A DNA stretch of 64,000 bases from Eubacteriales bacterium (GCA_045541375.1 JAZQJB010000108.1:4680-68679), one strand, 5' to 3'. Positions 130-64,000 are shown, counted from the stretch's first letter. The notes: generated by a model from the letters alone, not told the origin. Numbers and translations are program-made.

Positions 130-1437
130 ATGAAGAAATTTATAATATCGTTATTTGTCATTTTTGCGACGCTGCTACACTCCTGCACCCCAGTAGATGC
201 TGGAGAAAAAAACATATCGACCAATACCGATGCGGTGACAGAGGAGGAAAAAAAGATGCTGACAGTTGTTGCTGACGGCAAGACCGAGTTTGAGATAATA
301 CGTCCCGATGAAATGGACGGCATTAGATCGCATCTGTTTACGTCTTTTTATAAGGAATTTAACGAAAGATACTCTTGCGATATCGAAAGCAAGTCGGATA
401 TCCTTGCATTGGTTTATAAGGTCGATCCAAATGCAAATGAAATTCTCCTTGGAGACACCAACAGGGATGCATCTGCTGTCCTTAAAGAAAAACTCACCAC
501 AGCCGGTGGAAACCGATTTGGCATTATGGCGACGGATTGCAAGATAGTCATCAACGGAACAGGTTGGTATCAATGCTACCTTGCTCTTGATTATTTTTTT
601 AATAATTTTGCATCCGTTGATGAAAGCGGACAAGTTACAGTTTCGGTCGAGTGCGGATTTGAGTATATTTCAGAGCAATGCGATGATGTAGAATATACCA
701 TCGAAGAGCTTATATCGAGCGGAAAAGAAATCGCCTTTGCCGCAACAGAAAAGGTTTTGAAGTTCCAGAATAAAAACGGTGCCGGTACCGTTCAAGGTGG
801 CTGCACCGACGGAAAATACGTTTACGCAGGTATGATGGGGAAGGGCGAGGACGGAGTAGAGTTTGGAGTTATCTCCAAATACGATCTGTCAACGGGCGAG
901 TTGATCAAATATTCCGAAAGGCTTCCCCTATTTCATACAAATGATCTGACGTATGACGCGAAGAATAACAGGATAGTCATAGCGACGCTTGACGCCGGCT
1001 GGACTCGTCTTTCCTTTGTTGATGCCGATACGCTTGAATATCAAGGGGACTTTATTGCGCCTGTAGGTATCCGAGGACTTGAGTATCTGCCCGAAACGAA
1101 TCAGTATGTCGCTGCGGGCTTCGATATTGAGATCATGCTTCTTGACGAGAATTTCAACAAGCTATCCTCGCATATCTGTAAGGATCAGACTCTTATGACG
1201 CAGGGGCTTTATTCGGACGGCAAGTATGTTTACGATCCGCGTTATCTTGAGGGCAGAGCGGTACACCTGATGGTTGTCGAGGATATGGACGGAAATCTTA
1301 TTTCAAGTGCAAGTATTTTCGGACTTTCGACAGCAGAACCCGAGCACATGTACCGCTTGAACGGTGATCTGTATATCGGCTGTAACCACTCCGGATGGCT
1401 GTTCAAGATTGAAGTGATACCGCAGAATTGGTGGTAA
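130..1437 (+). CDS. secreted lipoprotein, function unknown (N-terminal shared module plus beta-propeller-like C-terminal region)
   Basis: Long ORF with a strong RBS. Signal peptide with lipobox LLHSC. No catalytic motif recognised. The N-terminal module resembles those of the lipoproteins at 19822 and 31406. Confidence 0.6.
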   Translation: MKKFIISLFVIFATLLHSCTPVDAGEKNISTNTDAVTEEEKKMLTVVADGKTEFEIIRPDEMDGIRSHLFTSFYKEFNERYSCDIESKSDILALVYKVDPNANEILLGDTNRDASAVLKEKLTTAGGNRFGIMATDCKIVINGTGWYQCYLALDYFFNNFASVDESGQVTVSVECGFEYISEQCDDVEYTIEELISSGKEIAFAATEKVLKFQNKNGAGTVQGGCTDGKYVYAGMMGKGEDGVEFGVISKYDLSTGELIKYSERLPLFHTNDLTYDAKNNRIVIATLDAGWTRLSFVDADTLEYQGDFIAPVGIRGLEYLPETNQYVAAGFDIEIMLLDENFNKLSSHICKDQTLMTQGLYSDGKYVYDPRYLEGRAVHLMVVEDMDGNLISSASIFGLSTAEPEHMYRLNGDLYIGCNHSGWLFKIEVIPQNWW

Positions 1438-1444
1438 GAAGAAA

Positions 1445-1475
1445 CCCGACACATCAAAAGTGTGCCGGGTTTTTT
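1445..1475. terminator. bidirectional hairpin terminator between convergent genes
   Basis: CCCGACACA / TGTGCCGGG stem followed by a T-run on the + strand, sitting between stop codons at 1437 and 1477. Confidence 0.6.
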
Positions 1476-1476
1476 A

Positions 1477-3651
1477 TTATCTGCGTTTTTTGATTATGAT
1501 TGCTTCAAGTGCAAAGAGCCCGAACAATGCGATCGGTGATGTTATTGCACCGCATCCTCCGGAGTTTGCGGGTTCGGTCGCCTCGGGAGCCGTTGTCATC
1601 TCGGGTGCGGGAGTAACTGCGGGCTCGGTTGCTTCGGGGGTGTCGAGGGATGTTGTAACCTCTGCTTCTGTTGTCGTTTCGGCGGTTTCTGTCTGTGTGT
1701 AGCTTACGAGGAACTGTGCCGAGGATACCCACTCGCCCGTTACGAAGTTTCTGCCGAGAACCGCGATCTTATCCTTATAAATGCGGATATAGTAACCCTC
1801 GCTGCCCGTCTGATGCTCACCGGTAACGATGTCGTATGAGTGCCAGAGATATGCCACCGACGAGGTGTTGAAGATCTTCGCGTTCTTGCCCTCGTACATA
1901 CAGTTGTCGGAATCGAGGATCCAGTGTGTATGACCGTTGAAGAACATGACCTCGGGATATTTGTCGATAACTGTCTTGAGCTGTGCGTAATTGGTGATTC
2001 CGCTCCATCCCTCTGCCTGGCTGCTGCCCGATGTGGTATTCAGCATCGGCTGATGATGGAAGATGAATATCGGTCTGCCGTCGCGGTTTTCATTGATCTT
2101 TTCCTCGAGCCATTGGAGCTGTGTCTGTGTCAGACGCGAGGCGCCCGTGTTTTCGGAGGCGAGGAAGATATAATGGTAGCCGTTTACCCAAACGTCGTAG
2201 TAGGGCTTATCGAAGGTGTTTCCGTCGGGGAAGTTAAGGTTTTCGAGGAACTGCTTGAGTCCCGCGTCATAGTTCGTTCCTATATATTCGTGGTTGCCGA
2301 TACCAAGATAGATGGGAGGAGCATCTTTTACGGAATCGTAATGTTTTTTGAAATATGTCCAATAAGAAGGTTCATCTCCGCGGTCAACATTGTCACCAAC
2401 GGTAAAGATACCGACGGAATTCGGACTGTTCTTGACAACGTCATTCAGCATACCGATGAAGTGCTTGCTGTATTCGTTCGAGGAATCGCCCTTGATATGA
2501 ATGTCGCTGACGATCTGGAATTCGGAGATTACTTCGCCGAATCCCTTTGAAGCCGCACCTTCGGGGAGCTTGACTTCAACACATTTTTCCGAAAGACCGT
2601 TGCTGTCGTTATAAGTGTAAATGAGAAGTTTGGTCGCACCCTCCGGGATGATGGTGTTGGGGGTCATTTCGTGAACAACGGTGGTCCCCGTGACTTTGAA
2701 ACGTGCAAGGCGTGTGTAGCCCTCAAGCTTGCCCGCATCGTTTGCCCACCACATATAAATATCATCGGCGCAATGATCCTCGGGAAGGGTGATGGTCAGA
2801 GTGCCGTCAGCCATGCCGTCGGTTGCATTTTTGAGCTTGTAATCGGCAGAGAGGGGAGCTTTCGCGATCTTCGACGGGTCTTTCACAACCTTGATATCGA
2901 GCGAAGCGAGCGCGATACCGATGCCGTTTTTGCCCGTAAGATCATCCGGGATGATGTAAAGGGTGTATTCACCTTCGGGCAGACCGAAATAGTCGGACAT
3001 CGAAGAGCCGCTATGAGATGCGTGCTTGATGTTGAAGGTTTCGTTCTTAACGTCGGAAATATAATCCCAATAGATAGAAGGACCTACGTAACCCTTGGGG
3101 AAGATACCGATCCAGTCCTTGCCGCCCGAATTTTTGCTTCCTGCTATTACCCACACGGGCTCGCCGACGAAATATTCGGTCTTATCGGTGACGATGTAAG
3201 TATCCTTGTCGGGAGGAGTAAGCGTGGGAGTTTTTGTTTGATCAGAGATTACGGTTATATCGATCGATGCGAGCCTCTTGTCATAACCGGATTTGACACT
3301 GTGATCGTCGGGAATGATAAAAACGGTATATTCACCTGCAGGAAGTGAATACAGATTTTCACGGTTTTTGCCGAGTCTGGTTGCTGTACGGATATCGAAA
3401 TCCGCTCCGATCTCTGTAAGGTAGTTCCAACGGATCGAAGCACCCGTTGTATCTCCCTTGACGGTGATACCCACCCAGTCCTTGCCCGAAGCATTCGTGC
3501 TTTTTGCGTTGACGATGATGGGCTCACCTTCATAATAAGTCGTTTTGTCGGTCGTAAGCGTAGCCGCGCTGTCTGCCGATACCGGAAGAATGGCAGAAAG
3601 AGCCGTTAAAGCGATTGCTGTGAGCAGAGTGATTGCTGTGAACTTTTTCAT
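1477..3651 (-). CDS. secreted calcineurin-like metallophosphoesterase with two N-terminal ~115-aa repeat domains and a C-terminal hydrophobic anchor
   Basis: 724-aa ORF with a signal peptide. Metallophosphoesterase motifs GDNVDRGD, GNHE, HHQP and GHTH. T/E/P-rich linker, then SGGCGA, a hydrophobic helix and KKRR at the C-terminus. Confidence 0.8.
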   Translation of the reverse strand: MKKFTAITLLTAIALTALSAILPVSADSAATLTTDKTTYYEGEPIIVNAKSTNASGKDWVGITVKGDTTGASIRWNYLTEIGADFDIRTATRLGKNRENLYSLPAGEYTVFIIPDDHSVKSGYDKRLASIDITVISDQTKTPTLTPPDKDTYIVTDKTEYFVGEPVWVIAGSKNSGGKDWIGIFPKGYVGPSIYWDYISDVKNETFNIKHASHSGSSMSDYFGLPEGEYTLYIIPDDLTGKNGIGIALASLDIKVVKDPSKIAKAPLSADYKLKNATDGMADGTLTITLPEDHCADDIYMWWANDAGKLEGYTRLARFKVTGTTVVHEMTPNTIIPEGATKLLIYTYNDSNGLSEKCVEVKLPEGAASKGFGEVISEFQIVSDIHIKGDSSNEYSKHFIGMLNDVVKNSPNSVGIFTVGDNVDRGDEPSYWTYFKKHYDSVKDAPPIYLGIGNHEYIGTNYDAGLKQFLENLNFPDGNTFDKPYYDVWVNGYHYIFLASENTGASRLTQTQLQWLEEKINENRDGRPIFIFHHQPMLNTTSGSSQAEGWSGITNYAQLKTVIDKYPEVMFFNGHTHWILDSDNCMYEGKNAKIFNTSSVAYLWHSYDIVTGEHQTGSEGYYIRIYKDKIAVLGRNFVTGEWVSSAQFLVSYTQTETAETTTEAEVTTSLDTPEATEPAVTPAPEMTTAPEATEPANSGGCGAITSPIALFGLFALEAIIIKKRR

Positions 3652-3688
3652 GTCTTTTCTCCTTGCTGTGTTTATTTTGAATTGAATT

Positions 3689-4165
3689 TCAAGACTCTTT
3701 GATCCGTTTTCCCGTTATATGCTCGGGTACGAGCTCAAGGCAAAGGGTGTTTTTGCCGAAAGATGCTATCTCTTTTTCAATATATTCGCTGTCGTCGGTG
3801 AATTTGAAGCTTAATTTGCGGCAAATATCCATTGCTTTGTCGAAGTCCTCAACGATTTGAATCCTTCCGAAAACGATGATGCTTTTTATATTCAGAGCCC
3901 AATCTCCGTCGTTGCGATAACCGCTGTCATAAACGCAGAAGGAAGCCTTGTTGCACGCTCGGAGAGCATCGACCTTGTGCCCCGACTTGCCGCTGTGGAA
4001 GTATATGTGCCCGTCATCTTCGTTATAGTAATAATTGATCGGAACACCATAAGGGTATCCGTCGTCGCCGATCAAGGAAAGCACGCCGCGAGGCTCGTTT
4101 TTCAGTATTTCTTTACATTCATCAAGCGTGAGAGCTTGCTTTTTTCTTACTATTTCTCTGAACAT
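3689..4165 (-). CDS. pyridoxamine 5'-phosphate oxidase family FMN-binding protein (NimA-like)
   Basis: 158 aa. The N-terminal pattern (LTLDECKEIL...GVLSLIGDDGYPYGVPINYYY) and size are typical of the PNPOx-like split-barrel family. Confidence 0.65.
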   Translation of the reverse strand: MFREIVRKKQALTLDECKEILKNEPRGVLSLIGDDGYPYGVPINYYYNEDDGHIYFHSGKSGHKVDALRACNKASFCVYDSGYRNDGDWALNIKSIIVFGRIQIVEDFDKAMDICRKLSFKFTDDSEYIEKEIASFGKNTLCLELVPEHITGKRIKES

Positions 4166-4252
4166 CTGCTTGACCCTTTCGATTTGTTAAGTTAATTATA
4201 CCATATCAAAAGAAAAAAATCCACACAATCGAAAAATTTTTTTATTTCGCTA

Positions 4253-4281
4253 TTGAAATTTTTATTATGATAAGGTATAAT
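4253..4281 (+). promoter_or_regulatory. sigma-A type promoter for fucO-like gene
   Basis: TTGAAA at 4253-4258, 17-nt spacer, TATAAT at 4276-4281. GGAGG lies upstream of ATG 4344. Confidence 0.5.
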
Positions 4282-4343
4282 TAATTCAACGGGCAGAATT
4301 GATCCCGAATAAATTAGGTAAAATATTACCGGAGGTACTTAAA

Positions 4344-5486
4344 ATGGCAAATCGTTTCGTATCCAACGCAATATCATATCACGGCAAGGGCGCGATCCTC
4401 GAGATCCCCGCAATCGTTGCAGCCAAAGGCTTCAAAAAGGCTTTCGTAGCTTCCGACCCCGATCTTGTTAAGTTCGGTGTAACAAAGAAGGTCACCGATA
4501 TCCTTGATAAGGAAGGAATGGCTTACGAGATCTATTCCGACATCAAGCCCAATCCTACCATTGAAAATGTAAAGAACGGTGTTGAGGCATATAAGGCTTC
4601 GGGCGCTGACTACATGATCGCCATCGGCGGCGGGTCTTCGATGGACACCGCAAAGGCTATCGGTATCATTATCAACAACCCCGAGTTCGCTGATGTTCGT
4701 TCTCTCGAGGGCGTTGCACCCACCAAGAACCGCACCGTTTACACCATCGCAGTTCCCACCACAGCGGGTACCGCTGCAGAGGCTACCATTAACTACGTTA
4801 TCACCGACGTTGAGCGCAAGAGAAAGTTCGTTTGTGTTGACGTAAACGACATTCCCGACATCGCAGTTGTTGACCCCGATATGATGTCCACAATGCCCAA
4901 GGGACTCACCGCCGCAACGGGTATGGACGCTCTCACACACGCAATTGAAGGTTACACCACCAAGGCAGCATGGGATCTTCCCGATTGCCTCAACCTTGAA
5001 GCTATCCGCCTCATCGCAAAGAGCCTGCGCGGAGCAGTCAACAACGATCCCGAAGGACGTGAGGGAATGGCTCTCGGTCAGTTCGTAACAGGTATGGCAT
5101 TCTCGAACGTAGGTCTCGGAATCGCTCACTCGGTAGCGCACACTCTCGGCGCGGTTTACGACACTCCCCACGGCGTTGCATGTGCTATAATGCTTCCCAT
5201 CGTTATGGAGTATAACGCAGAATGCACCGGCGAGAAGCTTAAGGCAGTTGCCGAGGCTATGGGTGTTGACACCACCGGAATGAGCCAGGCTGAATACCGC
5301 AAGGCAGCCGTTGACGCAGTTCGTCAGCTCTCGGTTGACGTCGGAATCCCCACAAAGCTTGAAGCACTCAAGGAAGAGGACCTCGACTTCCTCGCAGAGT
5401 CCGCGTATGCAGACGCTTGCGCTCCCGGCAACCCCAAGGCTGCTTCGGTTGAGGATATCAAGGGACTTATCAGAAAGCTTATGTAA
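4344..5486 (+). CDS. fucO: iron-containing alcohol dehydrogenase, lactaldehyde reductase / 1,2-propanediol oxidoreductase type
   Basis: From MANRF, long stretches closely match my recollection of E. coli FucO (NNPEFADVRSLEG, PTTAGTAAE.TINYVITD, RKFVCVD, DALTHAIEGY, FSNVGLG, TPHGVA). I chose ATG 4344 (RBS GGAGG) over the track start at 4299. Confidence 0.85.
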   Translation: MANRFVSNAISYHGKGAILEIPAIVAAKGFKKAFVASDPDLVKFGVTKKVTDILDKEGMAYEIYSDIKPNPTIENVKNGVEAYKASGADYMIAIGGGSSMDTAKAIGIIINNPEFADVRSLEGVAPTKNRTVYTIAVPTTAGTAAEATINYVITDVERKRKFVCVDVNDIPDIAVVDPDMMSTMPKGLTAATGMDALTHAIEGYTTKAAWDLPDCLNLEAIRLIAKSLRGAVNNDPEGREGMALGQFVTGMAFSNVGLGIAHSVAHTLGAVYDTPHGVACAIMLPIVMEYNAECTGEKLKAVAEAMGVDTTGMSQAEYRKAAVDAVRQLSVDVGIPTKLEALKEEDLDFLAESAYADACAPGNPKAASVEDIKGLIRKLM

Positions 5487-5501
5487 TTATTACCGTGTAT
5501 C

Positions 5502-5531
5502 AAAAGCCTCGATCTTCGGATCGAGGCTTTT
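5502..5531. terminator. bidirectional rho-independent terminator
   Basis: GCCTCGATC-ttcg-GATCGAGGC stem flanked by an A-run and a T-run, between convergent stops at 5486 and 5536. Confidence 0.7.
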
Positions 5532-5535
5532 GCGT

Positions 5536-6375
5536 TCAAATGATATTTTTCAGTTTCTCCGCCGCGTCCGTGAAAGCGGTCTTGGCGTCGGGATATTTAT
5601 ATGGATTCTCGAAAGAACGTCCGACGAGGGCGTTTAGTCCCGAAAACAGCTCAAGGTGCGGTTCGAGCGACACGAAGAAGTCGCAGTCCGCGTCTTTTTT
5701 ATGTTCCGCGAGTATCTCCGCAATCTTTGCCTCGCCGCATCCGGGAGGTACGATAGCGCCCGCCGAGAGGGCGTCCTTGATATGGAAATATGCGATCCTG
5801 TCTTTGAGCAGTCTATATGCCTCGGGATATGGATCAACGCCTTCAAGGACGAAATTTCCCATATCATAAACGCAGGCAAGATCGGGGAAAGCATCAAGCA
5901 ATTCGCGGCAACGCGCGGGAATGTCGCCATAGATCTTCGCCTCGTTCTCGTGACAGAGAACAACTCCGTATTCTTTTGCAGCCTCAAGAAGTCTGCCGAG
6001 AGCAGAGAAGGCTTCGTCCTTCATTTCGACGATATTTCTGCCCGCGGGTGCGTAGAAGCTGAATACTCTGACAAACTTTGCGCCGAGGATATTTGCATAT
6101 TCAAAGATTCTTTTTGCCGTTTCAATATGACTGTCAATATCTCCGTCAAGCTTGATCTTGCCAAGTGGAGAACCAATCGCGGAGACTTTGATGCCGTATT
6201 TGTCAAGAAGCTCTTTGACTTCAAGAACTTCCGTCTTGGTCAGAACAGAAATATTCTTCTTGTTGACGTGGCGGATTTCAATATGAGATATTCCGAGCTT
6301 GCAAAGCCCCACGAGTTGTTCTTCGAAGGAATCCGCATATTCATCGGCGAATGCCGAAAGTATGATATTTGCCAT
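5536..6375 (-). CDS. sugar phosphate isomerase/epimerase (xylose isomerase-like TIM barrel)
   Basis: 279-aa ORF. Pattern typical of the AP_endonuc_2/TIM-barrel family (HIEIR..., CHENE, SLEPH). Tightly packed with the downstream oxidoreductases. Confidence 0.7.
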   Translation of the reverse strand: MANIILSAFADEYADSFEEQLVGLCKLGISHIEIRHVNKKNISVLTKTEVLEVKELLDKYGIKVSAIGSPLGKIKLDGDIDSHIETAKRIFEYANILGAKFVRVFSFYAPAGRNIVEMKDEAFSALGRLLEAAKEYGVVLCHENEAKIYGDIPARCRELLDAFPDLACVYDMGNFVLEGVDPYPEAYRLLKDRIAYFHIKDALSAGAIVPPGCGEAKIAEILAEHKKDADCDFFVSLEPHLELFSGLNALVGRSFENPYKYPDAKTAFTDAAEKLKNII

Positions 6376-6377
6376 AT

Positions 6378-7253
6378 TTACACCTTGATTTCGGGAAGTT
6401 CTTCCTCTTTTCCGCTTTCAAGCGAGCGCATAATAGCGTTCATAATGAAAACGGGAGAGATGAATTCCTCGTGCGTGCAGGTCTGCTCGCCGCCGTTCAG
6501 GATCTCGGCAAATTCCTTGAATTCGCGGTAATACCAATCGGTAGTCGTGGGAATCTCAAAGGATTTGGATGACTTTTCCGCCATTCTTGCGGCGTAATAA
6601 ACGTAAGAGCCGTCGCAGAAAAGCCCGACGCAATCGTAATTATCGTAATGGAAAAGCACGTTTATCGTCTTGCCGTTTTTCTTTGCCTCAACCGATTTCG
6701 GGAATCTGCCGAATATCTCGCAGACCATCTCGACAAGGTGCTGAGCGTAGAAATAGAATCCGCCGTAGGCATTTTCTGCCTGATATGGCGCGCGAACGAA
6801 ACCGCCGAGAGTTTTGCCGCCTGCCTCTGCAAGTGCATCTGCTTTCAGCTCGGAAACGTAAACATCTTGCTTGAGTGATGAACCGCCCGAGATCCTTGTG
6901 CCGCGTGCTTTGAGCTCACGCATAAACTCGACTGCCTCGTCCTCGCAGACCGTGATCGGTTTGTCGATGAACATCGGAATACCGCTTGCGATATAGGGCT
7001 TTGCGAATTTATAATGATCTCCGCCGTGGCGCGCGGTGATGATAAGACCGTCGATCTTGCCGACTGCGGAATCATAATTATCAAGAACCGGTACGCCGAA
7101 AGTGTCGCGAAGCTTCTCCGAAGCCGCCGAGTCAACGCTGTAAACGCCGATGCATTCGATGTCGGAGAATTCTTCCTTTTCCTTGATAAACTTCAAAAAC
7201 GCATTGGCGTGCGAATTTTCACAACCGAGAATAGCTATCTTTTTCATTTTCAT
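6378..7253 (-). CDS. Gfo/Idh/MocA family oxidoreductase
   Basis: N-terminal Rossmann motif KIAILGCENSHA. The start is ambiguous among three ATGs (7259, 7253, 7247). I chose 7253 from its spacing to AAGGAG. Confidence 0.7.
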   Translation of the reverse strand: MKMKKIAILGCENSHANAFLKFIKEKEEFSDIECIGVYSVDSAASEKLRDTFGVPVLDNYDSAVGKIDGLIITARHGGDHYKFAKPYIASGIPMFIDKPITVCEDEAVEFMRELKARGTRISGGSSLKQDVYVSELKADALAEAGGKTLGGFVRAPYQAENAYGGFYFYAQHLVEMVCEIFGRFPKSVEAKKNGKTINVLFHYDNYDCVGLFCDGSYVYYAARMAEKSSKSFEIPTTTDWYYREFKEFAEILNGGEQTCTHEEFISPVFIMNAIMRSLESGKEEELPEIKV

Positions 7254-57951: not shown

Positions 57952-59238
57952 ATGGATCTTAAAAATCTTCTTAAATCACTTGAAAACTGCCCCTGCGGCA
58001 GAGAGCACACCTTTGACACCAAGGTCGTTGAGATATACAGCGGTCTGACCAAGGACACGGGCAAGATCCTGCTTGACGCGGGCTTCCCGACCAACATCCT
58101 TCTTGTTGCCGACGAGAACACTCTCGGCGTTGCAAATGCGGAGGGACTCTCTGATTCTCTCGCGGCTTCGGGCTTCAACGTAAAGAAGCTTATCTATAAG
58201 AATATGATGTACGCTCGCATCGAGCAGGTTCGTGAGGTCGAGGCTCTGCTTGATGACGTTGACGGCGTTATCTCCTGCGGCACAGGCTCGCTCAACGACA
58301 TCTGCCGTGTTGCGTCCTTCGAAAAGGACAAGAAGTTCTGTATCTTCGCAACCGCCCCCTCGATGGACGGCTTCGCATCCGATACCGCTCCCATTATCGA
58401 AAACAACTTCAAGGTTTCCTGGTTCGTTCGTCAGCCCATGGTCATCCTTGCAGACACCAAGATCCTTTCAAACGCTCCCACCGAGCTCAAGGCAGCGGGC
58501 TTTGGCGATATGGTAGCAAAGTACATAGGCATCGTTGACTGGAGAATTTCCCATATCCTCACCGGCGAGTATTACTGCCCCGCAATCGCAGACCTCACCA
58601 TGACCGCAGTCAAGAAGATGGTCGCCCTTGCAGATAAGGTTACCGGCAACGACGAAGAGGCTGCAGGCGCAATTATGGAAGCTCTCGTCCTTTCGGGACT
58701 TGCAATGAAGCTCGCTCTCTGCTCAAGACCCGCATCGGGCGCAGAGCACGTTGTTTCCCACTATTGGGAGTGCTACAAGCTCGCCCGCGGCATCTGGCCC
58801 GAGTTCCACGGCAAGAAGGTCGGCGTTGCTACCCTCATCATCAACAAGATCTACCGCAATATCGCAGACCGCGTCGAGGAGATCAACCCCACCAAGGATG
58901 AGCCCGATTGGAACGAGGTCTACAAGCACTTCTCGGCTGAGCAGATCCCCGAGGTTGAAAAGCTCAACAACCCCAGCATTATGGATAAGATCGACGCCGC
59001 TGACCTCAAGGCTAAATGGCCCGAGATCCGCGAGATCATCCGCGAGGTCCTTCCCGAGAACGACAAGCTCCTCGATCTTATGAAGATTGCAGGCTGTGCA
59101 ACCACTCCCGAGGAGATCAACGTCTCCCCCGAGCTCTTCGCCGAGGGTATCTACTACCACGGATATATGAGATACCGCATCCTTCTTACCAGAATGATGC
59201 CCATGATCGGTATCGATCCTATGCAGTATCTTGACTAA
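57952..59238 (+). CDS. iron-containing alcohol dehydrogenase superfamily protein, sn-glycerol-1-phosphate dehydrogenase (AraM/EgsA)-like
   Basis: 428 aa. GTGSLNDI nucleotide-binding block, DGFAS, GFGDM and GAEHVVSH metal-site blocks resemble G1PDH or 3-dehydroquinate-synthase-like enzymes. Confidence 0.55.
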   Translation: MDLKNLLKSLENCPCGREHTFDTKVVEIYSGLTKDTGKILLDAGFPTNILLVADENTLGVANAEGLSDSLAASGFNVKKLIYKNMMYARIEQVREVEALLDDVDGVISCGTGSLNDICRVASFEKDKKFCIFATAPSMDGFASDTAPIIENNFKVSWFVRQPMVILADTKILSNAPTELKAAGFGDMVAKYIGIVDWRISHILTGEYYCPAIADLTMTAVKKMVALADKVTGNDEEAAGAIMEALVLSGLAMKLALCSRPASGAEHVVSHYWECYKLARGIWPEFHGKKVGVATLIINKIYRNIADRVEEINPTKDEPDWNEVYKHFSAEQIPEVEKLNNPSIMDKIDAADLKAKWPEIREIIREVLPENDKLLDLMKIAGCATTPEEINVSPELFAEGIYYHGYMRYRILLTRMMPMIGIDPMQYLD

Positions 59239-59304: not shown

Positions 59305-60048
59305 TTGAAAAACGAAAAGCTTATGTCGCTTGCTGCTGCATTCGGCTGGTTCGGTGCCTATCTATTTATCAGCATAATTGCCGTGCATCTGCCCGAGGGC
59401 GTTGACTGCGCGGTGACCATTCTCGCTCTTTGGGGACTCATCCTCGTTTGTGCAAGAAGCTTTGAAGATAAAAAGACCATCCCCGAAATGCTCGCTCACG
59501 GCGGCATACGGAAGGTTAAAGTATCTGTCTTGCTATTTGCTTTTTTTGCAGGCGCGGGACTGAATCTCGCATATAGCGGACTTCTTCCTTTGCTTCCGAT
59601 TCCGGAGGAAATAGTAGAATCATACATCGACGCCTCGGCAAAATACGAAGAACCTTCAAACGCCCTAATGTTCAAGGCAGTTTTCCTCGTTCCCGTGCTT
59701 GAAGAAACGGTATTCCGAGGACTCCTCGGCGACAGAATATCGCGTTTTGCACCAAAATGGATAGCCATTCCTGCTGCCTCGCTGATCTTCGCCGTAATGC
59801 ACGGTGATCTTCTGTGGTGCGCGTATGCATTCATTTCGGGTATCGTTCTGACTTGGATGTATTTCAGATGCAAGTCGATTTTGCCCTGTATCTCCTTCCA
59901 CCTTGCATTTAATGCCGCAAATTATCTATGGGCGAAGATACTTCACCTGCCCGACGAGGTGTGGGCGTATGCGGTGAGCCTGATCATCGGAATATTGCTG
60001 TGTCTTACCGGATTGATTTTGACGACAAAGAACTCCGACTCGAAATGA
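59305..60048 (+). CDS. CPBP family intramembrane glutamic endopeptidase (CAAX protease-like)
   Basis: TTG start 7 nt after AAGGAGG. Motifs EETVFRG, FAVMHG and HLAFN in a polytopic membrane protein. Confidence 0.75.
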   Translation: MKNEKLMSLAAAFGWFGAYLFISIIAVHLPEGVDCAVTILALWGLILVCARSFEDKKTIPEMLAHGGIRKVKVSVLLFAFFAGAGLNLAYSGLLPLLPIPEEIVESYIDASAKYEEPSNALMFKAVFLVPVLEETVFRGLLGDRISRFAPKWIAIPAASLIFAVMHGDLLWCAYAFISGIVLTWMYFRCKSILPCISFHLAFNAANYLWAKILHLPDEVWAYAVSLIIGILLCLTGLILTTKNSDSK

Positions 60049-60066: not shown

Positions 60067-60855
60067 TTATGCCAACTCAACAAACGCGCAAACGGGATTG
60101 TGGTCGGATATGTAAAGACCGTCGGCGGGGGTGTCGGTTACGACGTAAGACTTCGAAATGTCGCAGGGAAGATCGGTGAAGATATAGTCGATCTTCGGTG
60201 CTTTTTCGGGAGAATATCTGCCGAAGCCGTGGAATGTGCCGCCGAGAGAAGCGGTTGCGTCGATGACGGGCTTGCCGTTGATCGCGTAAGCGGTGAATGC
60301 CTCGATCTCGGGAGTGCCGGGATGAGCGTTCATATCGCCTGTAATAATGCAGGGGAGCTTACGCTCGGAAAGGTATCTGACAACGTCGAGCGCGCCGAGC
60401 TTTCTTGCCTCCGAGCCCTTGTGGTCGAGGTGTGTATTGAGGAAGATGAATATCTCATCGGAATCCTTGTGCTTAAGAGTAGCGGCGGTATACACACGAG
60501 GACATCCGCTCTGGTCAGCCGCGTAGCGAGAGCCGGGTACAAGAGGAGTAGCCGAGAGCCAGCGGGTCTCGAGTGCAATCAGCTCAAAATCATCGCGCTT
60601 GAATGCGATGCAGGTAGACTCGCCGCGGTAATCCGCGCTGCGTCCGCATCCGACTACGGTGTATCCGAGGGGTGAAAGCTCGTCGCCGAGCCATTTCTTC
60701 ATCACGGAAGCCGCCTCCTGGAAACCGATGAGGTCGGGAGCGTTTTCCTTGATAGTGTCAAGAATTCTGCCCTTGCGGTTGTGGAAAATGTTGTTGCCGT
60801 CAACCTCGGCAATAACGCGGAGATTAAAGGTGCAAACTTTAAGTGTGGTGCTCAT
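60067..60855 (-). CDS. endonuclease/exonuclease/phosphatase (EEP) family protein
   Basis: CTFNLR, GFQEA, NTHLDH, GDMN and SDHNP blocks. RBS AGGAGG. Confidence 0.75.
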   Translation of the reverse strand: MSTTLKVCTFNLRVIAEVDGNNIFHNRKGRILDTIKENAPDLIGFQEAASVMKKWLGDELSPLGYTVVGCGRSADYRGESTCIAFKRDDFELIALETRWLSATPLVPGSRYAADQSGCPRVYTAATLKHKDSDEIFIFLNTHLDHKGSEARKLGALDVVRYLSERKLPCIITGDMNAHPGTPEIEAFTAYAINGKPVIDATASLGGTFHGFGRYSPEKAPKIDYIFTDLPCDISKSYVVTDTPADGLYISDHNPVCAFVELA

Positions 60856-60877
60856 TTTTAAGCCTCCTGTATGTTTT

Positions 60878-61039
60878 TCATTTGTGTTTTTTGCAATTAC
60901 GGTAAATAAGTATTCCTACTGTGGCACCAATGATTATGCCGAGTGCGAGAGCGATCACCCATCCGCCTTCTTCCATCATAAAGAAGAATTCGTCAACGGG
61001 TGAGAAGACTACGTCGAGTGAGAAAAAAGGCAATTTCAT
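60878..61039 (-). CDS. 53-aa single-pass membrane protein (paralog set, member c)
   Basis: ATG 61039 lies 8 nt after AAGGAG and overlaps the upstream TGA (ATGA). MKLPFFSLDVVFSPVDEFFFMMEEGGWVIALALGIIIGATVGILIYRNCKKHK. Confidence 0.55.
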   Translation of the reverse strand: MKLPFFSLDVVFSPVDEFFFMMEEGGWVIALALGIIIGATVGILIYRNCKKHK

Positions 61040-61206
61040 TTTGAATTCTCCTTGTCTTTCTTTTTCTTGGTGAAAAATACAATTCCAATAATCGCGCTGA
61101 TCACCAGAAGCGCGGCAAGCGCAATCACCCATCCCAAGTGTACCAAATACACCATAAATATATCGAAGGGTGAAACTGCTGCATCAAGTACGAAAAAATT
61201 ATACAT
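61036..61206 (-). CDS. 56-aa single-pass membrane protein (paralog set, member b)
   Basis: ATG 61206 lies 8 nt after GGAGGG and overlaps the upstream TAA (TAATG). MYNFFVLDAAVSPFDIFMVYLVHLGWVIALAALLVISAIIGIVFFTKKKKDKENSK. Confidence 0.55.
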   Translation of the reverse strand: MYNFFVLDAAVSPFDIFMVYLVHLGWVIALAALLVISAIIGIVFFTKKKKDKENSK

Positions 61207-61451
61207 TAATAATCCCTCCAAGTCTCTCTTTTCTTATCTTCGAGTCTTTGGCGAGTCTCTTTTTCTTTGCGCCTTTTGATCGATTTAAGGAGAATAGATG
61301 TTGCTATTATGCCGCAAATAACGATTACGATAAATGCAGCGATCAGTATCCAGATCGTTGTGTCGGATAGCGGTGTGCTCGGTGGTTTGGGGGTTGGGTC
61401 GATCGGCTGAATCGAAAAAACAGGTTCTAATCTTGCAAACCAATAATTCAT
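61206..61451 (-). CDS. 81-aa single-pass membrane protein (paralog set, member a)
   Basis: ATG 61451 lies 7 nt after AGGAGG. N-terminal FARLEPVFSIQPID motif, Pro-rich spacer, TM helix, K/R/E-rich tail. Confidence 0.55.
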   Translation of the reverse strand: MNYWFARLEPVFSIQPIDPTPKPPSTPLSDTTIWILIAAFIVIVICGIIATSILLKSIKRRKEKETRQRLEDKKRETWRDY

Positions 61452-61461
61452 ATTTTGCCTC

Positions 61462-61809
61462 CTAAATCAGTGAGAGTATTGCAGAACCCAATATCAGAGA
61501 AGCTGCATTGATTACCGTTGAAATAAGAATCGACTTTTTTGGCGAGAGATCACAAAGAAAACCTATGAGAAGACCTTCCCCTAAAAATACGGCTATTTCT
61601 CCGAGAATAACAACTATTAAGTAGACCGCGTAGTTTGGTGTAAGTGTAAAAATAATCATCAAAGCCGCATTGAGCGCGGGATTGGTCAGAAGATTTATAA
61701 GTATCAGCGGGATGATCGAATTCTTCCTTCGTATGATCCACGCACCAAGCGGAACCTCAAGCACCAAAGTCAGCGCTAATGCTGAAAATAGAGTGTAAAT
61801 TGCTTTCAT
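61462..61809 (-). CDS. 115-aa polytopic membrane protein, function unknown
   Basis: 3-4 hydrophobic helices. ATGA overlap with the upstream gene. No motif recognised. Confidence 0.5.
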   Translation of the reverse strand: MKAIYTLFSALALTLVLEVPLGAWIIRRKNSIIPLILINLLTNPALNAALMIIFTLTPNYAVYLIVVILGEIAVFLGEGLLIGFLCDLSPKKSILISTVINAASLILGSAILSLI

Positions 61810-62867
61810 CTTCGGTCACGGATGTCGTCTGTGGTAAGAAATATACAAACTGCGGCAATAAGAGAGAGAAGAGGAATAAGTATTACCGAAAGATTCGTTT
61901 CAATGGGGAACAGAGTGTTGATAAAGTATCCGATAAAGAGTGAAACTGTCGTCAAACCGAACACAAAGCCCTCGTGTCCCGGTAGCTTTCGGGCTGCACC
62001 GACAAGTGTGATAGGCATTGCAATATTAAAGAAAAATGTTGCACCGAGGAAGAAAATCATCGATTCTGCACCTATAAAATAAAGCGGAACGCATAGCAAA
62101 AGCGAAGCAGAGCCGACTCTCCTTGCCCCGAAGAGATCGGACAAAATACCGCCGAGAAATTTTCCTGCAAATGCCGCCGCTGAAATTATGAGAGGGATCA
62201 ACGGGGCTTTTGATTCTGGGCGCGTGGCAGCAAATCCCGCATAGGAGCGGATGACAACTGCAAAAAGCAGAACCGAAAGCGCCGGAACGGAAGCGGAAAG
62301 AATGATCTTTGAGGCAGGTCGAAGCTGTTCTTCCTGCGTGATCTTCGGAAGAGGAATAAACTTCCTTTCGCCCTCGCAATAGATCATAACTGCACAGGCG
62401 GCAAATATCAAGCAAGCGGAATAATGGATGGGCGAGAGCAGAAGCTTCTCACCGAGTATACAGCCGAGCGCTATGCCGAGCGATCCCGACGAAACGAATA
62501 TTCCTGCTCGGGTAAATCCTCGGTCCGTGGTTAGTGCATCAATTCCGCCTCCTACGTGGAAACAAGCATTTCCAAGCCCAACAAGACAAACGGTCAACGC
62601 AGGCATCTCGCCGCCGATCATAACGCCAACGGCTGTAGAAACTATGCCGACGACCGCAAAGATCCTACCGTTTGACTTCACTATATCAGCAAAGGCGCCG
62701 AAAAGATGTTGTGTCGCAAAGGCTAACATATTATAAAGTACAAATAAGACAGCTACCTCTGCCGAGTCGATATCGCCCGAGGCATACATTGCATATAGCG
62801 CGTATCCGCAGGAAAGATCAACGAGGAAATGTGATATTGTATAGGTGATCAAAGAATTTTCTTTCAT
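61806..62867 (-). CDS. 353-aa polytopic membrane protein, compact MFS-like
   Basis: About 10-12 hydrophobic segments with two-fold pseudo-symmetry. The second half carries GGILSDLFGARRVG, which resembles MFS motif A. ATGA overlap with the anti-sigma gene. Confidence 0.5.
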   Translation of the reverse strand: MKENSLITYTISHFLVDLSCGYALYAMYASGDIDSAEVAVLFVLYNMLAFATQHLFGAFADIVKSNGRIFAVVGIVSTAVGVMIGGEMPALTVCLVGLGNACFHVGGGIDALTTDRGFTRAGIFVSSGSLGIALGCILGEKLLLSPIHYSACLIFAACAVMIYCEGERKFIPLPKITQEEQLRPASKIILSASVPALSVLLFAVVIRSYAGFAATRPESKAPLIPLIISAAAFAGKFLGGILSDLFGARRVGSASLLLCVPLYFIGAESMIFFLGATFFFNIAMPITLVGAARKLPGHEGFVFGLTTVSLFIGYFINTLFPIETNLSVILIPLLSLIAAVCIFLTTDDIRDRR

Positions 62868-63730
62868 TCTTTATCCCCGTTGCTTTTTTCCGCAGAAGAA
62901 GTTCTGACCGATGAAAGCGAGATCAGAAACGCCACAAACGATGCAACTGCGAGCAGTCCCGATACGATCAGGAGTGCGAGGGTGATCTCCTCTCCGCCGG
63001 GAACGGAAGACGCTTCGGGTGCCGCATCCTGATATGTGATTTGGGTTTCGGCTCCGTCTTTGGTCGCACTTTCGGTCACTTCTTCTGCCGGAGCTTGCAT
63101 TTCTGCCTCGGTTTCGGGTGTCATCGTTTCGGGAATCATCGTTTCGGGCTGTGCGGTTTCGGCAACCGACATTGATTCTTCAAAAGTGTTTTCGGGTATC
63201 GGTATTGTATCGATAGGAGCAACCTCCGGAGCAGGATCTTGAGCGGAAGCAGACGTCTGTTCCGCCTCAATATTTTCATCGGTAGACTGAGATAATGCGG
63301 AATCTGATTTGTTGCATTCCTCGACTATGGTATCCTCAAGTGAATATTGAGGATCATTTGGCAGTCCCTCACCACCCGTGCCCGAACGCCACATTGGGAT
63401 CAATGTGATTGCGAGCGTTGCGGAAAGGCAAAGCATAACGCAAGCAACGGAAATTGCCGCACCGCGGAAAAAAGCAGCCTTGCGCCTCGGCTTTTTCTTC
63501 GGCTCCGATTCGATCGATGCCATTATGCGCGAATGAAGTCCTTCGGGCATTTCTTCCTCTGCCGATCGGATCGCTTCCTTGAGCGCACGAAGCTCCTCAA
63601 ACTCTTTGCGGCAATCTTCGCACTCGGCAATATGCGCCTCAAACTCGCGCATTTCTGCCGCGGTCAGCTCGCCTTCTATATATTCATCCGCCATCAAGCG
63701 GAATTTTTTGCATGAAGGAGTTTTTTCCAT
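62864..63730 (-). CDS. zf-HC2 type anti-sigma factor with an acidic extracytoplasmic region and a second C-terminal TM helix
   Basis: ATG 63730 follows AAAGGA. CKKF...H(x3)C(x2)C zinc motif (AHIAECEDC), TM at AISVACVMLCLSATLAITLI, E/T/P/A-rich region, C-terminal helix LALLIVSGLLAVASFVAFLISL. Confidence 0.7.
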   Translation of the reverse strand: MEKTPSCKKFRLMADEYIEGELTAAEMREFEAHIAECEDCRKEFEELRALKEAIRSAEEEMPEGLHSRIMASIESEPKKKPRRKAAFFRGAAISVACVMLCLSATLAITLIPMWRSGTGGEGLPNDPQYSLEDTIVEECNKSDSALSQSTDENIEAEQTSASAQDPAPEVAPIDTIPIPENTFEESMSVAETAQPETMIPETMTPETEAEMQAPAEEVTESATKDGAETQITYQDAAPEASSVPGGEEITLALLIVSGLLAVASFVAFLISLSSVRTSSAEKSNGDKE

Positions 63731-63806
63731 AGCTTTTCCTTTCGTAAGATTTGTTTTCATATATAAAGACGTGGATTTTTATAAAAAGTTCCGTATTTTT
63801 CGAAAA

Positions 63807-64000
63807 TTAAAAAATATTTTTTGATAAGATTATTTTCCGCAATCGCTCCCGCGCGCGGAACAGCTTGGATTTCAGCGTTCCTTCCGTGAGTCCAAGCATC
63901 TCGGCGATCTCGGCGTATGAAAGACCTTCAATATCGCGCAGAACGATTATCTCTCTTGCCGCCGCCGGTAGTTCCTCGATAGATCGACGAACCACTTCTT
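63807..64000 (-). CDS. ECF sigma factor, C-terminal part only (gene runs off the window)
   Basis: Region 4 HTH IIVLRDIEGLSYAEIAEMLGLTEGTLKSKLFRARERL. The reading frame is open to the window edge. Confidence 0.75.
   Translation of the reverse strand, partial: EVVRRSIEELPAAAREIIVLRDIEGLSYAEIAEMLGLTEGTLKSKLFRARERLRKIILSKNIF

Follow-up and report, generated by a model that had tools for sequence, protein, structure and literature searches.

The window analysed here, a stretch of 64,000 nucleotides from a Eubacteriales bacterium (C108:4680-68679 of a 2.86-Mb, 158-contig assembly), ends in a string of minus-strand genes that contains a three-part membrane module: a divergent transporter-like protein of the major facilitator superfamily (MFS), a four-helix membrane protein that belongs to an unnamed family, and very small single-pass proteins that share an N-terminal motif. 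In the genus of the window, this module is encoded behind an extracytoplasmic function (ECF) sigma factor and an anti-sigma factor. Read from the window end, the string includes the C-terminal part of the sigma gene (63807-64000); the 298-residue zf-HC2 anti-sigma factor (62864-63760); the first core component, the 353-residue MFS protein p353 (61806-62867); the second core component, the 115-residue four-helix protein p115 (61462-61809); and three mini-proteins of 81, 56 and 53 residues, m81 (61206-61451), m56 (61036-61206) and m53 (60878-61039). The last gene of the co-directional string encodes a cytoplasmic enzyme of the endonuclease/exonuclease/phosphatase (EEP) fold (60067-60855; PF03372, E 7e-11).

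The genes are closely packed. The sigma and anti-sigma genes are 46 nt apart, while the anti-sigma/p353 and p353/p115 junctions are both ATGA overlaps. A gap of 10 nt separates p115 from m81, m81 and m56 share a TAATG overlap, m56 and m53 an ATGA overlap, and the EEP gene follows m53 after 22 nt. A GGAGG, GGAGGG or AGGAG box lies 6-10 nt upstream of every mini-gene (for m81, AGGAGG at 8 nt). This gene order, with its coordinates, overlaps and ribosome-binding sites, had been described in a first-pass annotation made from the sequence of the window, and all of it was reproduced. The G+C content drops to about 0.41 across p115 and the mini-genes (60750-61750), from 0.50-0.57 in the EEP and anti-sigma genes on either side.

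The larger of the two core components, p353, belongs to a new and divergent clade of the known MFS superfamily. The protein itself has no Pfam match at E<=0.1 and no NCBIfam match, whereas 18 of its 42 aligned homologues match PF07690 (best E 1.9e-13) and precomputed matches to the same family are present on many of its relatives. The AlphaFold2 model, with a mean predicted local distance difference test score (pLDDT) of 92.6, predicts 12 helices in two six-helix halves, the canonical MFS fold. Foldseek comparison of this model with the PDB gave 323 matches at E<=1e-3, and all 50 matches listed are MFS transporters, among them SfMCT, VMAT, G6PT and OxlT, with TM-scores of 0.57-0.74. The first-pass description of the protein as MFS-like is therefore borne out. 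Residues that are near-invariant within the clade include H13, D17, N46, Q53, D61, N100, H104, R207, K236 and D244. The name Fsr (fosmidomycin resistance) occurs as an automatic JGI label on three distant homologues only and finds no NCBIfam match.

The second core component, p115, is a member of a large four-helix family that lacks a name, a family model and a structure. The AlphaFold2 model contains four helices (pLDDT 89); searches of Pfam, NCBIfam and PDB sequences gave no match, Foldseek gave none below E 1, and ten relatives searched together with p115 also lack a Pfam match. One search retrieved 1,028 clusters at 90% identity, and 5,381 representatives at 50% identity were found at E<=1e-3; family members, if named at all, are labelled 'hypothetical protein'. 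A weak NCBIfam match to CBO0543 (E 0.006) on a single fused relative was not reproduced, and CBO0543 was rejected as the family of p115. Across 64 diverse sequences, E18, N39, T42, N43, E71, E78 and N101 are invariant, and P44, S97 and S104 nearly so. The charges of the loops (RRK in loop 1, KK in loop 3) suggest an N-out/C-out topology, and natural fusions agree with it, since some relatives carry an exported domain at the N terminus and others a PstS-like domain at the C terminus. Given this topology, the helix positions would place the invariant polar residues along the inside of the bundle, from mid-membrane to the cytoplasmic third.

The three mini-proteins are real genes and not chance open reading frames (ORFs), because their orthologues, starts and ribosome-binding sites are conserved, they evolve under purifying selection, and m53 is recovered by a profile built outside the genus. 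Orthologues with the same starts and ribosome-binding sites occur in about 20 species of the genus; those of m56 are 70-88% identical, and the counterparts of m81 in sister species are longer (82-90 residues) and contain L-x-D-P-V-x3-P-E. Ratios of nonsynonymous to synonymous substitution (dN/dS) against orthologues are 0.16 for m53 and 0.21-0.23 for m56, in the same range as p115 (0.20-0.37). A hidden Markov model (HMM) built exclusively on 59 minimal partner proteins from other genera and phyla, and run over 23,798 six-frame ORFs of this genome, ranked m53 first (E 7e-4) and m81 fourth, the latter weakly (E 0.21); the 12 best ORFs listed do not include m56. None of the three has a Pfam match, and their matches to LPXTG and QVPTGV anchor models are sub-threshold and are caused by the helix and tail.

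The features on which the first-pass annotation had grouped the mini-proteins, a shared N-terminal motif (FFSLDVVFSPVD, FFVLDAAVSPFD, FARLEPVFSIQPID), a helix that in two of them starts with GWVIALA, and Lys/Arg tails, are present. In m53, MKLPFFSL-DVVFSPVDEF is followed by a helix and RNCKKHK; in m56, MYNFFVL-DAAVSPFD is followed by a helix and KKKKDKENSK; and in the divergent m81, ...FARL-EPVFSIQPID... precedes a helix and a Lys/Arg-rich tail. Small-x3-small packing patterns (G-IIIG-ATVG, S-AIIG) can be read directly in the mini-protein helices. The N-out/C-in topology predicted in the first pass is consistent with the positive-inside rule.

The motif itself stood, but its first definition was too narrow: the general form is a hydrophobic leader, or else a complete Sec signal peptide, followed by D-[VILA]-x3-P, and it also occurs in proteins of 100-390 residues. 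In single-pass partner proteins, the motif core is D-[VILA]-x3-P-x-[DE]. These proteins begin with either a Sec-type signal peptide ending in A or G, or a leader of 4-10 residues ending in hydrophobic residues; then come Asp, [VILA], usually [AVI], a Pro 3-6 residues further on and acidic residues at +7/+8; an ectodomain of 0-300 residues comes next, and a helix with a Lys/Arg tail completes the protein. Asp is conserved as the residue that opens the motif, with Glu in its place in m81. Examples include CYA-DVVSINPIDEF in a clostridial metagenome contig (L049), MKILL-DLAPLPQE and MYLL-DVAVGPMY in Oscillospiraceae, CFA-DVVDIDPLE in a metagenome-assembled genome (MAG) labelled Methanobrevibacter, and AAA-DVIWTPDD in an LPXTG protein of Hungatella, to be compared with FFSL-DVVFSPVDEF in m53. 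Some of the larger carriers, of about 190-305 residues, have sizeable ectodomains, and some are LPXTG proteins. Within this family, m53, m56 and the divergent m81 represent the leaderless minimal form.

The motif is strongly enriched on the coding strand of the module. In the same 471 kb (88 loci), a strict pattern matched 85 ORFs on the strand of the module but a single one on the other strand; a relaxed pattern matched 121 and 6, respectively, in 67 of the 88 loci, where about 7 matches are expected from a genome-wide background of 0.014 per kb per strand. Both patterns were defined after examples had been seen, and the controls were the opposite strand, the genome background and the out-of-genus HMM. 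Unique motif proteins number 81, of which 62 are leaderless and 19 have a signal peptide; in the frequency table made from them, positions -3 to +1 and the Pro are fixed by the pattern, while +2 and the acidic positions are not. Partner proteins are encoded only at the module locus, as the sole credible strict-pattern matches in the whole genome of the window are m56 and m53.

The conserved unit consists of the MFS protein, p115 and the motif proteins. Species-representative genomes were scanned with a peptide pattern for the MFS protein only, which yielded at least 545 p353-related loci, and neighbourhoods were counted in the 80 best of these. In 73 of the 80, a p115 gene is no more than 4 kb away and has the same orientation; the seven misses are mostly at contig ends. 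Distant p353 homologues of Hungatella and several metagenomes are each adjacent to a p115 relative of 114-124 residues, and directly before it in three of four loci. Conversely, each p115 relative used in a reverse search lies directly after such an MFS gene, and in a class-wide scan every stand-alone p115 adjoins this MFS, bar one at a contig end. Of the 88 MFS/p115 pairs, 29 overlap or lie no more than 20 nt apart, and the gaps listed include 16 cases with an overlap of exactly 4 nt, as long as the ATGA junction in the window. A further 53 pairs are spaced by 156-1367 nt, with mini-genes in those gaps in the loci that were read, and in about 5 pairs p115 is upstream of the MFS gene. When all ORFs of at least 90 codons in module loci L041-L159 were clustered, the MFS protein and p115 were the only universal neighbours.

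Module loci are spread widely. Going by their record titles, the MFS loci belong to Oscillospiraceae, Lachnospiraceae, Peptococcaceae, Erysipelotrichaceae, Ruminiclostridium hungatei (the cultured strain DSM 14427 carries the module at L094), Gastranaerophilales, Chloroflexota, Planctomycetota and an alphaproteobacterial MAG, together with MAGs labelled Methanobrevibacter, Methanosarcinaceae and Pacearchaeota. Motif proteins occur in loci of Clostridia, Erysipelotrichaceae, Gastranaerophilales and Chloroflexota, and also in MAGs labelled Methanobrevibacter, Pacearchaeota and 'archaeon'; all of these archaeal assignments depend on MAG labels and are subject to the caveat of binning. The functional tie that the first-pass annotation had proposed between the mini-proteins and the two larger membrane proteins thus gains support from the co-occurrence of the trio across many families and phyla. 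A full-text literature search found no description of a combination of an MFS protein, a four-helix protein and motif proteins, in line with the first-pass view that no described system fits.

Between one and seven motif genes lie in the gaps and flanks of module loci, and between relatives the number varies from 0 to 7. Two Oscillospiraceae MAGs (L097, 5038-5865; L098, 3853-4934) have five to seven tandem motif mini-genes of 46-55 codons between the MFS gene and p115, followed by a 92-106-residue protein with a highly basic tail ending in KYKKKNKKK. In another lineage (L042 and L043, about 660-6400), a 113-residue p115 (p113), a 386-residue motif protein, the MFS protein and a 105-residue motif protein are encoded together, directly after VanW, an AMP-binding adenylating enzyme and a carrier protein. 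Such a neighbourhood is reminiscent of D-alanylation and may point to the transfer of acyl or aminoacyl groups.

Natural fusions of module parts also occur. In a sister subfamily of 240-313 residues (L058-L079; for example L060, 982-1866), the p115-like four-helix domain stands at the end of a single chain that begins with a signal peptide, followed by A-D-[MVIT]-G-P-K-P-S (or N-S-A-E-P-P-S) and an ectodomain of about 180 residues. Searches of Pfam, NCBIfam and the PDB with this subfamily returned no match. As read from its sequences, the subfamily joins, in cis, the four-helix domain and an N-terminal motif of the Asp type. In addition, a few p115 proteins (P0246, P0280) are fused at the C terminus to a divergent PstS-like (PBP_like_2) binding domain, and in two low-GC clostridial loci this domain is encoded by a separate membrane-anchored gene after the module (L048, 5209-5976; L049, 5510-6277).

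The sigma and anti-sigma pair is of an ordinary type. The complete sigma gene encodes 194 residues from a TTG start and reaches the equivalent of window position 64391, which is 391 nt beyond the window end. The window fragment matches Sigma70_r4_2 (E 2.9e-20) and, above the cut-off, TIGR02937 (sigma70-ECF), and the full-length protein matches Sigma70_r2 (E 1.1e-15) and Sigma70_r4_2 (E 2.6e-19) with no region 3 match. Regions 2 and 4, the missing region 3, the size and an anti-sigma gene directly downstream identify it as an ECF (group 4) sigma factor. The anti-sigma factor matches zf-HC2 (PF13490, E 2.5e-10, over residues 17-51) and an NCBIfam anti-sigma model (E 5.8e-14), and carries the H-x3-C-x2-C motif, read as HIAECEDC. 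It has two hydrophobic helices, as the first-pass annotation had said, at about residues 95-120 and, at the C terminus, 262-285, with an acidic outer linker of about 140 residues rich in Pro, Thr and Glu between them. It is thus a membrane anti-sigma factor of the zf-HC2 (ZAS) type.

Upstream of the sigma gene, dusB lies at a distance of 22 nt and overlaps by 4 nt the gene of a 220-residue protein (minus strand, about 1.4-2.1 kb past the window end; L021, 8107-8769), which heads the gene string. The 220-residue protein (MSKIKILFIGNSHTYYNDMP...) has no Pfam match, and its SGNH/GDSL-like look was judged by eye alone. A consensus scan found a strong terminator and a sigma-70-like promoter, TTGACT-17-TATTAT, upstream of its gene. 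Because dusB, this gene, the terminator and the promoter all lie upstream, the genes from sigma to EEP make up the far end of a long series of co-directional genes.

About 20 species of the genus show the order sigma, anti-sigma, p353, p115, mini-genes and EEP, with 0-3 or more mini-genes. Beside the module, homologues of the sigma and anti-sigma factors were found in L080-L089 alone, and the EEP gene in L080-L090 alone, all from the genus of the window. The sigma orthologues upstream of the module, which are 44-96% identical, are likewise limited to this genus. The idea that the sigma and anti-sigma factors are partners of the module does not hold in general, as they are present only in a subclade of the genus; nor does the inclusion of the EEP enzyme in the system, which reflects synteny at the genus level and is absent from module loci elsewhere. 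Across the genus, the EEP enzyme is 61-98% identical. In L039 (G019), it is kept beside the MFS gene where p115 and mini-genes are missing; in L040, dus lies directly upstream of it; and in G033 the order is MFS, a 219-residue protein, Dus and EEP, so the EEP gene looks like an old neighbour of dus.

On the opposite strand beyond the string, a plus-strand gene (59305-60048) encodes a 247-residue CPBP/Rce1-like intramembrane glutamic protease (PF02517, E 1e-18), which also matches the MrtJ, MrtS and myxosortase models weakly. It is convergent with the EEP gene, with 18 nt between the stop codons, and was seen in seven loci of the genus, elsewhere not alongside the module. The EEP enzyme and the CPBP protease were both rejected as parts of the system, since their conservation is confined to the genus and the EEP gene stays where p115 and mini-genes are missing. 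Just upstream of the CPBP gene, also on the plus strand (57952-59238), is the gene of a 428-residue Fe-ADH_2 protein (PF13685, a glycerol-1-phosphate dehydrogenase-like family).

Gene structure, family membership, co-occurrence, the shared motif and purifying selection lead us to favour, tentatively and at somewhat less than an even chance, a heteromeric complex of the MFS protein and the four-helix protein with dedicated single-pass partners, which in this genus would serve as an effector of an envelope-stress sigma circuit. Translational coupling would supply p353 and p115 in matched amounts, and the two would associate as the core of the complex. The partners, N-out and C-in, would bind the core through their helix and their extracytoplasmic N-terminal motif, and could act as interchangeable accessory or tethering subunits, the same motif heading proteins with sizeable ectodomains in other lineages and p115 itself being fused in some cases to a domain of the solute-binding type. 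Such an architecture, with a large permease, a four-helix small subunit and an outer protein, would loosely resemble that of the tripartite ATP-independent periplasmic (TRAP) transporters and the tripartite tricarboxylate transporters (TTT), and the complex may have a transport function. Since the module has been placed behind the ECF sigma factor and zf-HC2 anti-sigma factor in this genus, it is probably switched on there as an effector of the sigma circuit; the ATGA overlap between the anti-sigma and MFS genes, in an arrangement kept in about ten species, supports this link.

Several observations weigh against this proposal. On the side of regulation, no convincing conserved ECF-type -35/-10 pair was recognised when the 160 nt that precede the sigma start codon were inspected by eye, both in this genome and in nine relatives, and the nearest promoter found is the sigma-70-like one two genes further upstream of the sigma gene. 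Five species of the genus (G019, G033, G016, G009 and G031) keep a distant MFS protein (27-36% identity) and have neither a p115 gene anywhere nor mini-genes; one of them, G019, retains the sigma factor, the anti-sigma factor, a 36%-identical MFS protein and the EEP enzyme without p115 or mini-proteins. The fused p115-like subfamily has no MFS gene nearby, so p115 and the motif may work as a pair without the transporter. No conserved neighbour of the module gives a substrate clue, and among 32 module loci searched with Rfam no riboswitch leads the module; the only matches were tRNAs, L10 leaders, one tmRNA and one TwoAYGGAY RNA. Accessory subunits also leave unexplained why the motif is strictly N-terminal and why p115 has an invariant acidic and polar cluster within the membrane, which looks catalytic or ion-binding. 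These last two features fit a processing pathway better.

In such a dedicated processing or sorting pathway, the leading alternative although we consider it rather unlikely, p115 would be a small intramembrane enzyme, perhaps a glutamate-based peptidase or transferase of a size and logic similar to signal peptidase II, acting at the junction of leader and Asp in locally encoded substrates, while the MFS protein would export a peptide or supply a co-substrate. The motif is always at the N terminus, either right after a Sec-type signal with small residues at -3 and -1 (...VYA|DV, ...AFA|DV) or 4-10 residues after the Met; Asp comes first (Glu in m81), and the residues from -3 to -1 read as hydrophobic. 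E18, E71, E78, N39, N43 and N101 of p115 are invariant inside the membrane, and the carriers range from 45 to more than 300 residues and include LPXTG proteins, as substrates of sorting enzymes do. However, the cluster would lie between mid-membrane and the cytoplasmic side, as judged from helix positions, and the presumed cleavage site is at the outer face. Moreover, 62 of the 81 supposed substrates are minimal proteins without cargo, an enzyme and a substrate in one chain suit a docking motif better than a turnover enzyme, and p115 is similar to no peptidase family. The genome holds no credible motif protein away from the locus, where a general sorting pathway would be expected to have scattered carriers. 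A further, doubtful but far-reaching view is that the p115 family represents a new membrane-embedded enzyme or receptor, which would recognise an 'Asp box' at the N terminus of proteins encoded nearby, made up of a hydrophobic segment and D-[VILA]-x3-P.

The remaining explanations appear less probable. Tandem paralogues whose copy number changes between relatives, short hydrophobic leaders that stop before an Asp, and an MFS protein and a small polytopic protein in the same operon would suit a cassette for the production, export and immunity of peptides, in which the mini-proteins are precursors of secreted hydrophobic peptides (pheromone- or bacteriocin-like), the MFS protein is the exporter and p115 serves maturation or immunity. 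The leaders bear some likeness to streptococcal SHP pheromones, which mature N-terminal to an Asp, and to enterococcal pheromones, which derive from signal peptides. We regard a peptide cassette as improbable: the mini-proteins have a full helix of 20-23 residues and a Lys/Arg tail, typical of resident membrane anchors, the helix is conserved as much as the N terminus, with dN/dS of about 0.2 over the whole length, and the same motif heads surface proteins of 190-305 residues with ectodomains, some of them LPXTG proteins. In addition, no cognate receptor or regulator is conserved nearby, and the module is also present in contigs assigned to archaea and diderm bacteria. It is slightly less probable still that the mini-proteins modulate the anti-sigma factor, as YxlD and YxlE do with SigY in Bacillus subtilis, and that p353 and p115 are ordinary members of the regulon. 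The mini-proteins do share an operon with the sigma and anti-sigma genes, for which the sigY-yxlCDEFG operon offers a precedent, and the anti-sigma factor lacks a folded sensor domain and has a conserved second helix that could touch other membrane proteins. Outside the genus, however, the mini-proteins occur with the MFS protein and p115 and without the sigma and anti-sigma factors, and m81, m56 and m53 match neither the YxlD/YxlE-type (PLDc_N) family nor any other, so that they were rejected as regulators of that type. Finally, chance or pure synteny, in which seven genes share a strand and no function, is highly improbable for the core trio, where it is contradicted by the co-occurrence across phyla, the strong strand-specific enrichment and the fusions that join components; it holds only for the EEP, dus and 220-residue protein genes, which appear to be neighbours through genus-level synteny.

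Comparison with known systems suggests that the nearest analogies to the module are the TRAP/TTT transporters, small-protein modulators of transporters, and pairs of a motif and a sorting enzyme, although it belongs to none of these classes. Like the module, TRAP (DctPQM) and TTT (TctABC) systems encode together a secondary permease with 12 helices, a small membrane subunit with four and a partner protein outside the cytoplasm, and the few p115 proteins fused to, or beside, a PstS-like binding domain add to the likeness. The permease of the module, however, is an MFS protein and not DctM or TctA; p115 has no sequence match to DctQ or TctB and has an invariant acidic and polar core; and most partners are proteins of 45-70 residues without a binding domain, with no binding-protein gene in the window. 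Identification of p115 as a DctQ or TctB subunit was therefore rejected, the resemblance being architectural only. Small single-pass modulators of transporters include AcrZ for AcrB, KdpF, MgtS for MgtA, and the small subunits of ActP/PanF-type symporters. These too are very small N-out/C-in proteins that are encoded with, and presumably bind, a polytopic transporter, but in the module one locus can hold as many as seven paralogues, the partners share a conserved N-terminal motif outside the cytoplasm and also exist in versions with large ectodomains, and a four-helix component is obligatory.

The sortase/LPXTG, exosortase/PEP-CTERM, CPBP MrtJ/JDVT-CTERM and signal peptidase II/lipobox systems share with the module a short conserved motif by a hydrophobic segment, on carriers of varied size whose genes lie next to that of a small polytopic membrane protein in which polar residues are invariant. 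In the module, by contrast, the motif is N-terminal and not C-terminal, the conserved residue is Asp and not Cys or Thr-Gly, carriers are found only at the locus, and p115 is in none of these enzyme families. As p115 shows no match in sequence or fold, its identification as a signal peptidase II, S2P, rhomboid, CPBP or presenilin-type protein was rejected; the same holds for the mini-proteins as C-terminal sorting signals of a sortase or exosortase, since their motif is N-terminal and no sortase-like gene is present in the locus. The sigY-yxlCDEFG operon of B. subtilis tightly couples an ECF sigma factor, an anti-sigma factor, small membrane proteins and an ABC (ATP-binding cassette) transporter. 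It resembles the locus as an ECF sigma operon that looks autoregulated and contains an anti-sigma factor, small membrane proteins and a transporter, but it differs in having an ABC transporter and another family of small proteins, while the small proteins and transporter of the module are widespread without a sigma factor.

A local oddity opens onto a large piece of unannotated membrane biology, in which the close companions of a four-helix family are a distinct clade of MFS proteins and very small proteins whose family had gone unrecognised. Some of the motif mini-proteins barely exceed the usual length cut-offs of annotation, and their signature, an N-terminal Asp motif, a helix and a basic tail, can be used to annotate mini-genes in anaerobes of gut and sediment, and perhaps in methanogens. 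The natural fusions point to which parts touch, and in this genus the ECF sigma and anti-sigma pair provides a genetic handle for turning the module on. If the Asp-box reading is true, the module would represent an ancient pathway, common to bacteria and archaea, that matures or anchors N-out single-pass proteins together with a dedicated MFS protein, comparable to the lipobox/signal peptidase II or sorting-signal/sortase pairs but operating at the N terminus. Should p115 prove to be an enzyme or a receptor for the motif, it would reveal a new principle by which membrane proteins mature or transporters assemble.

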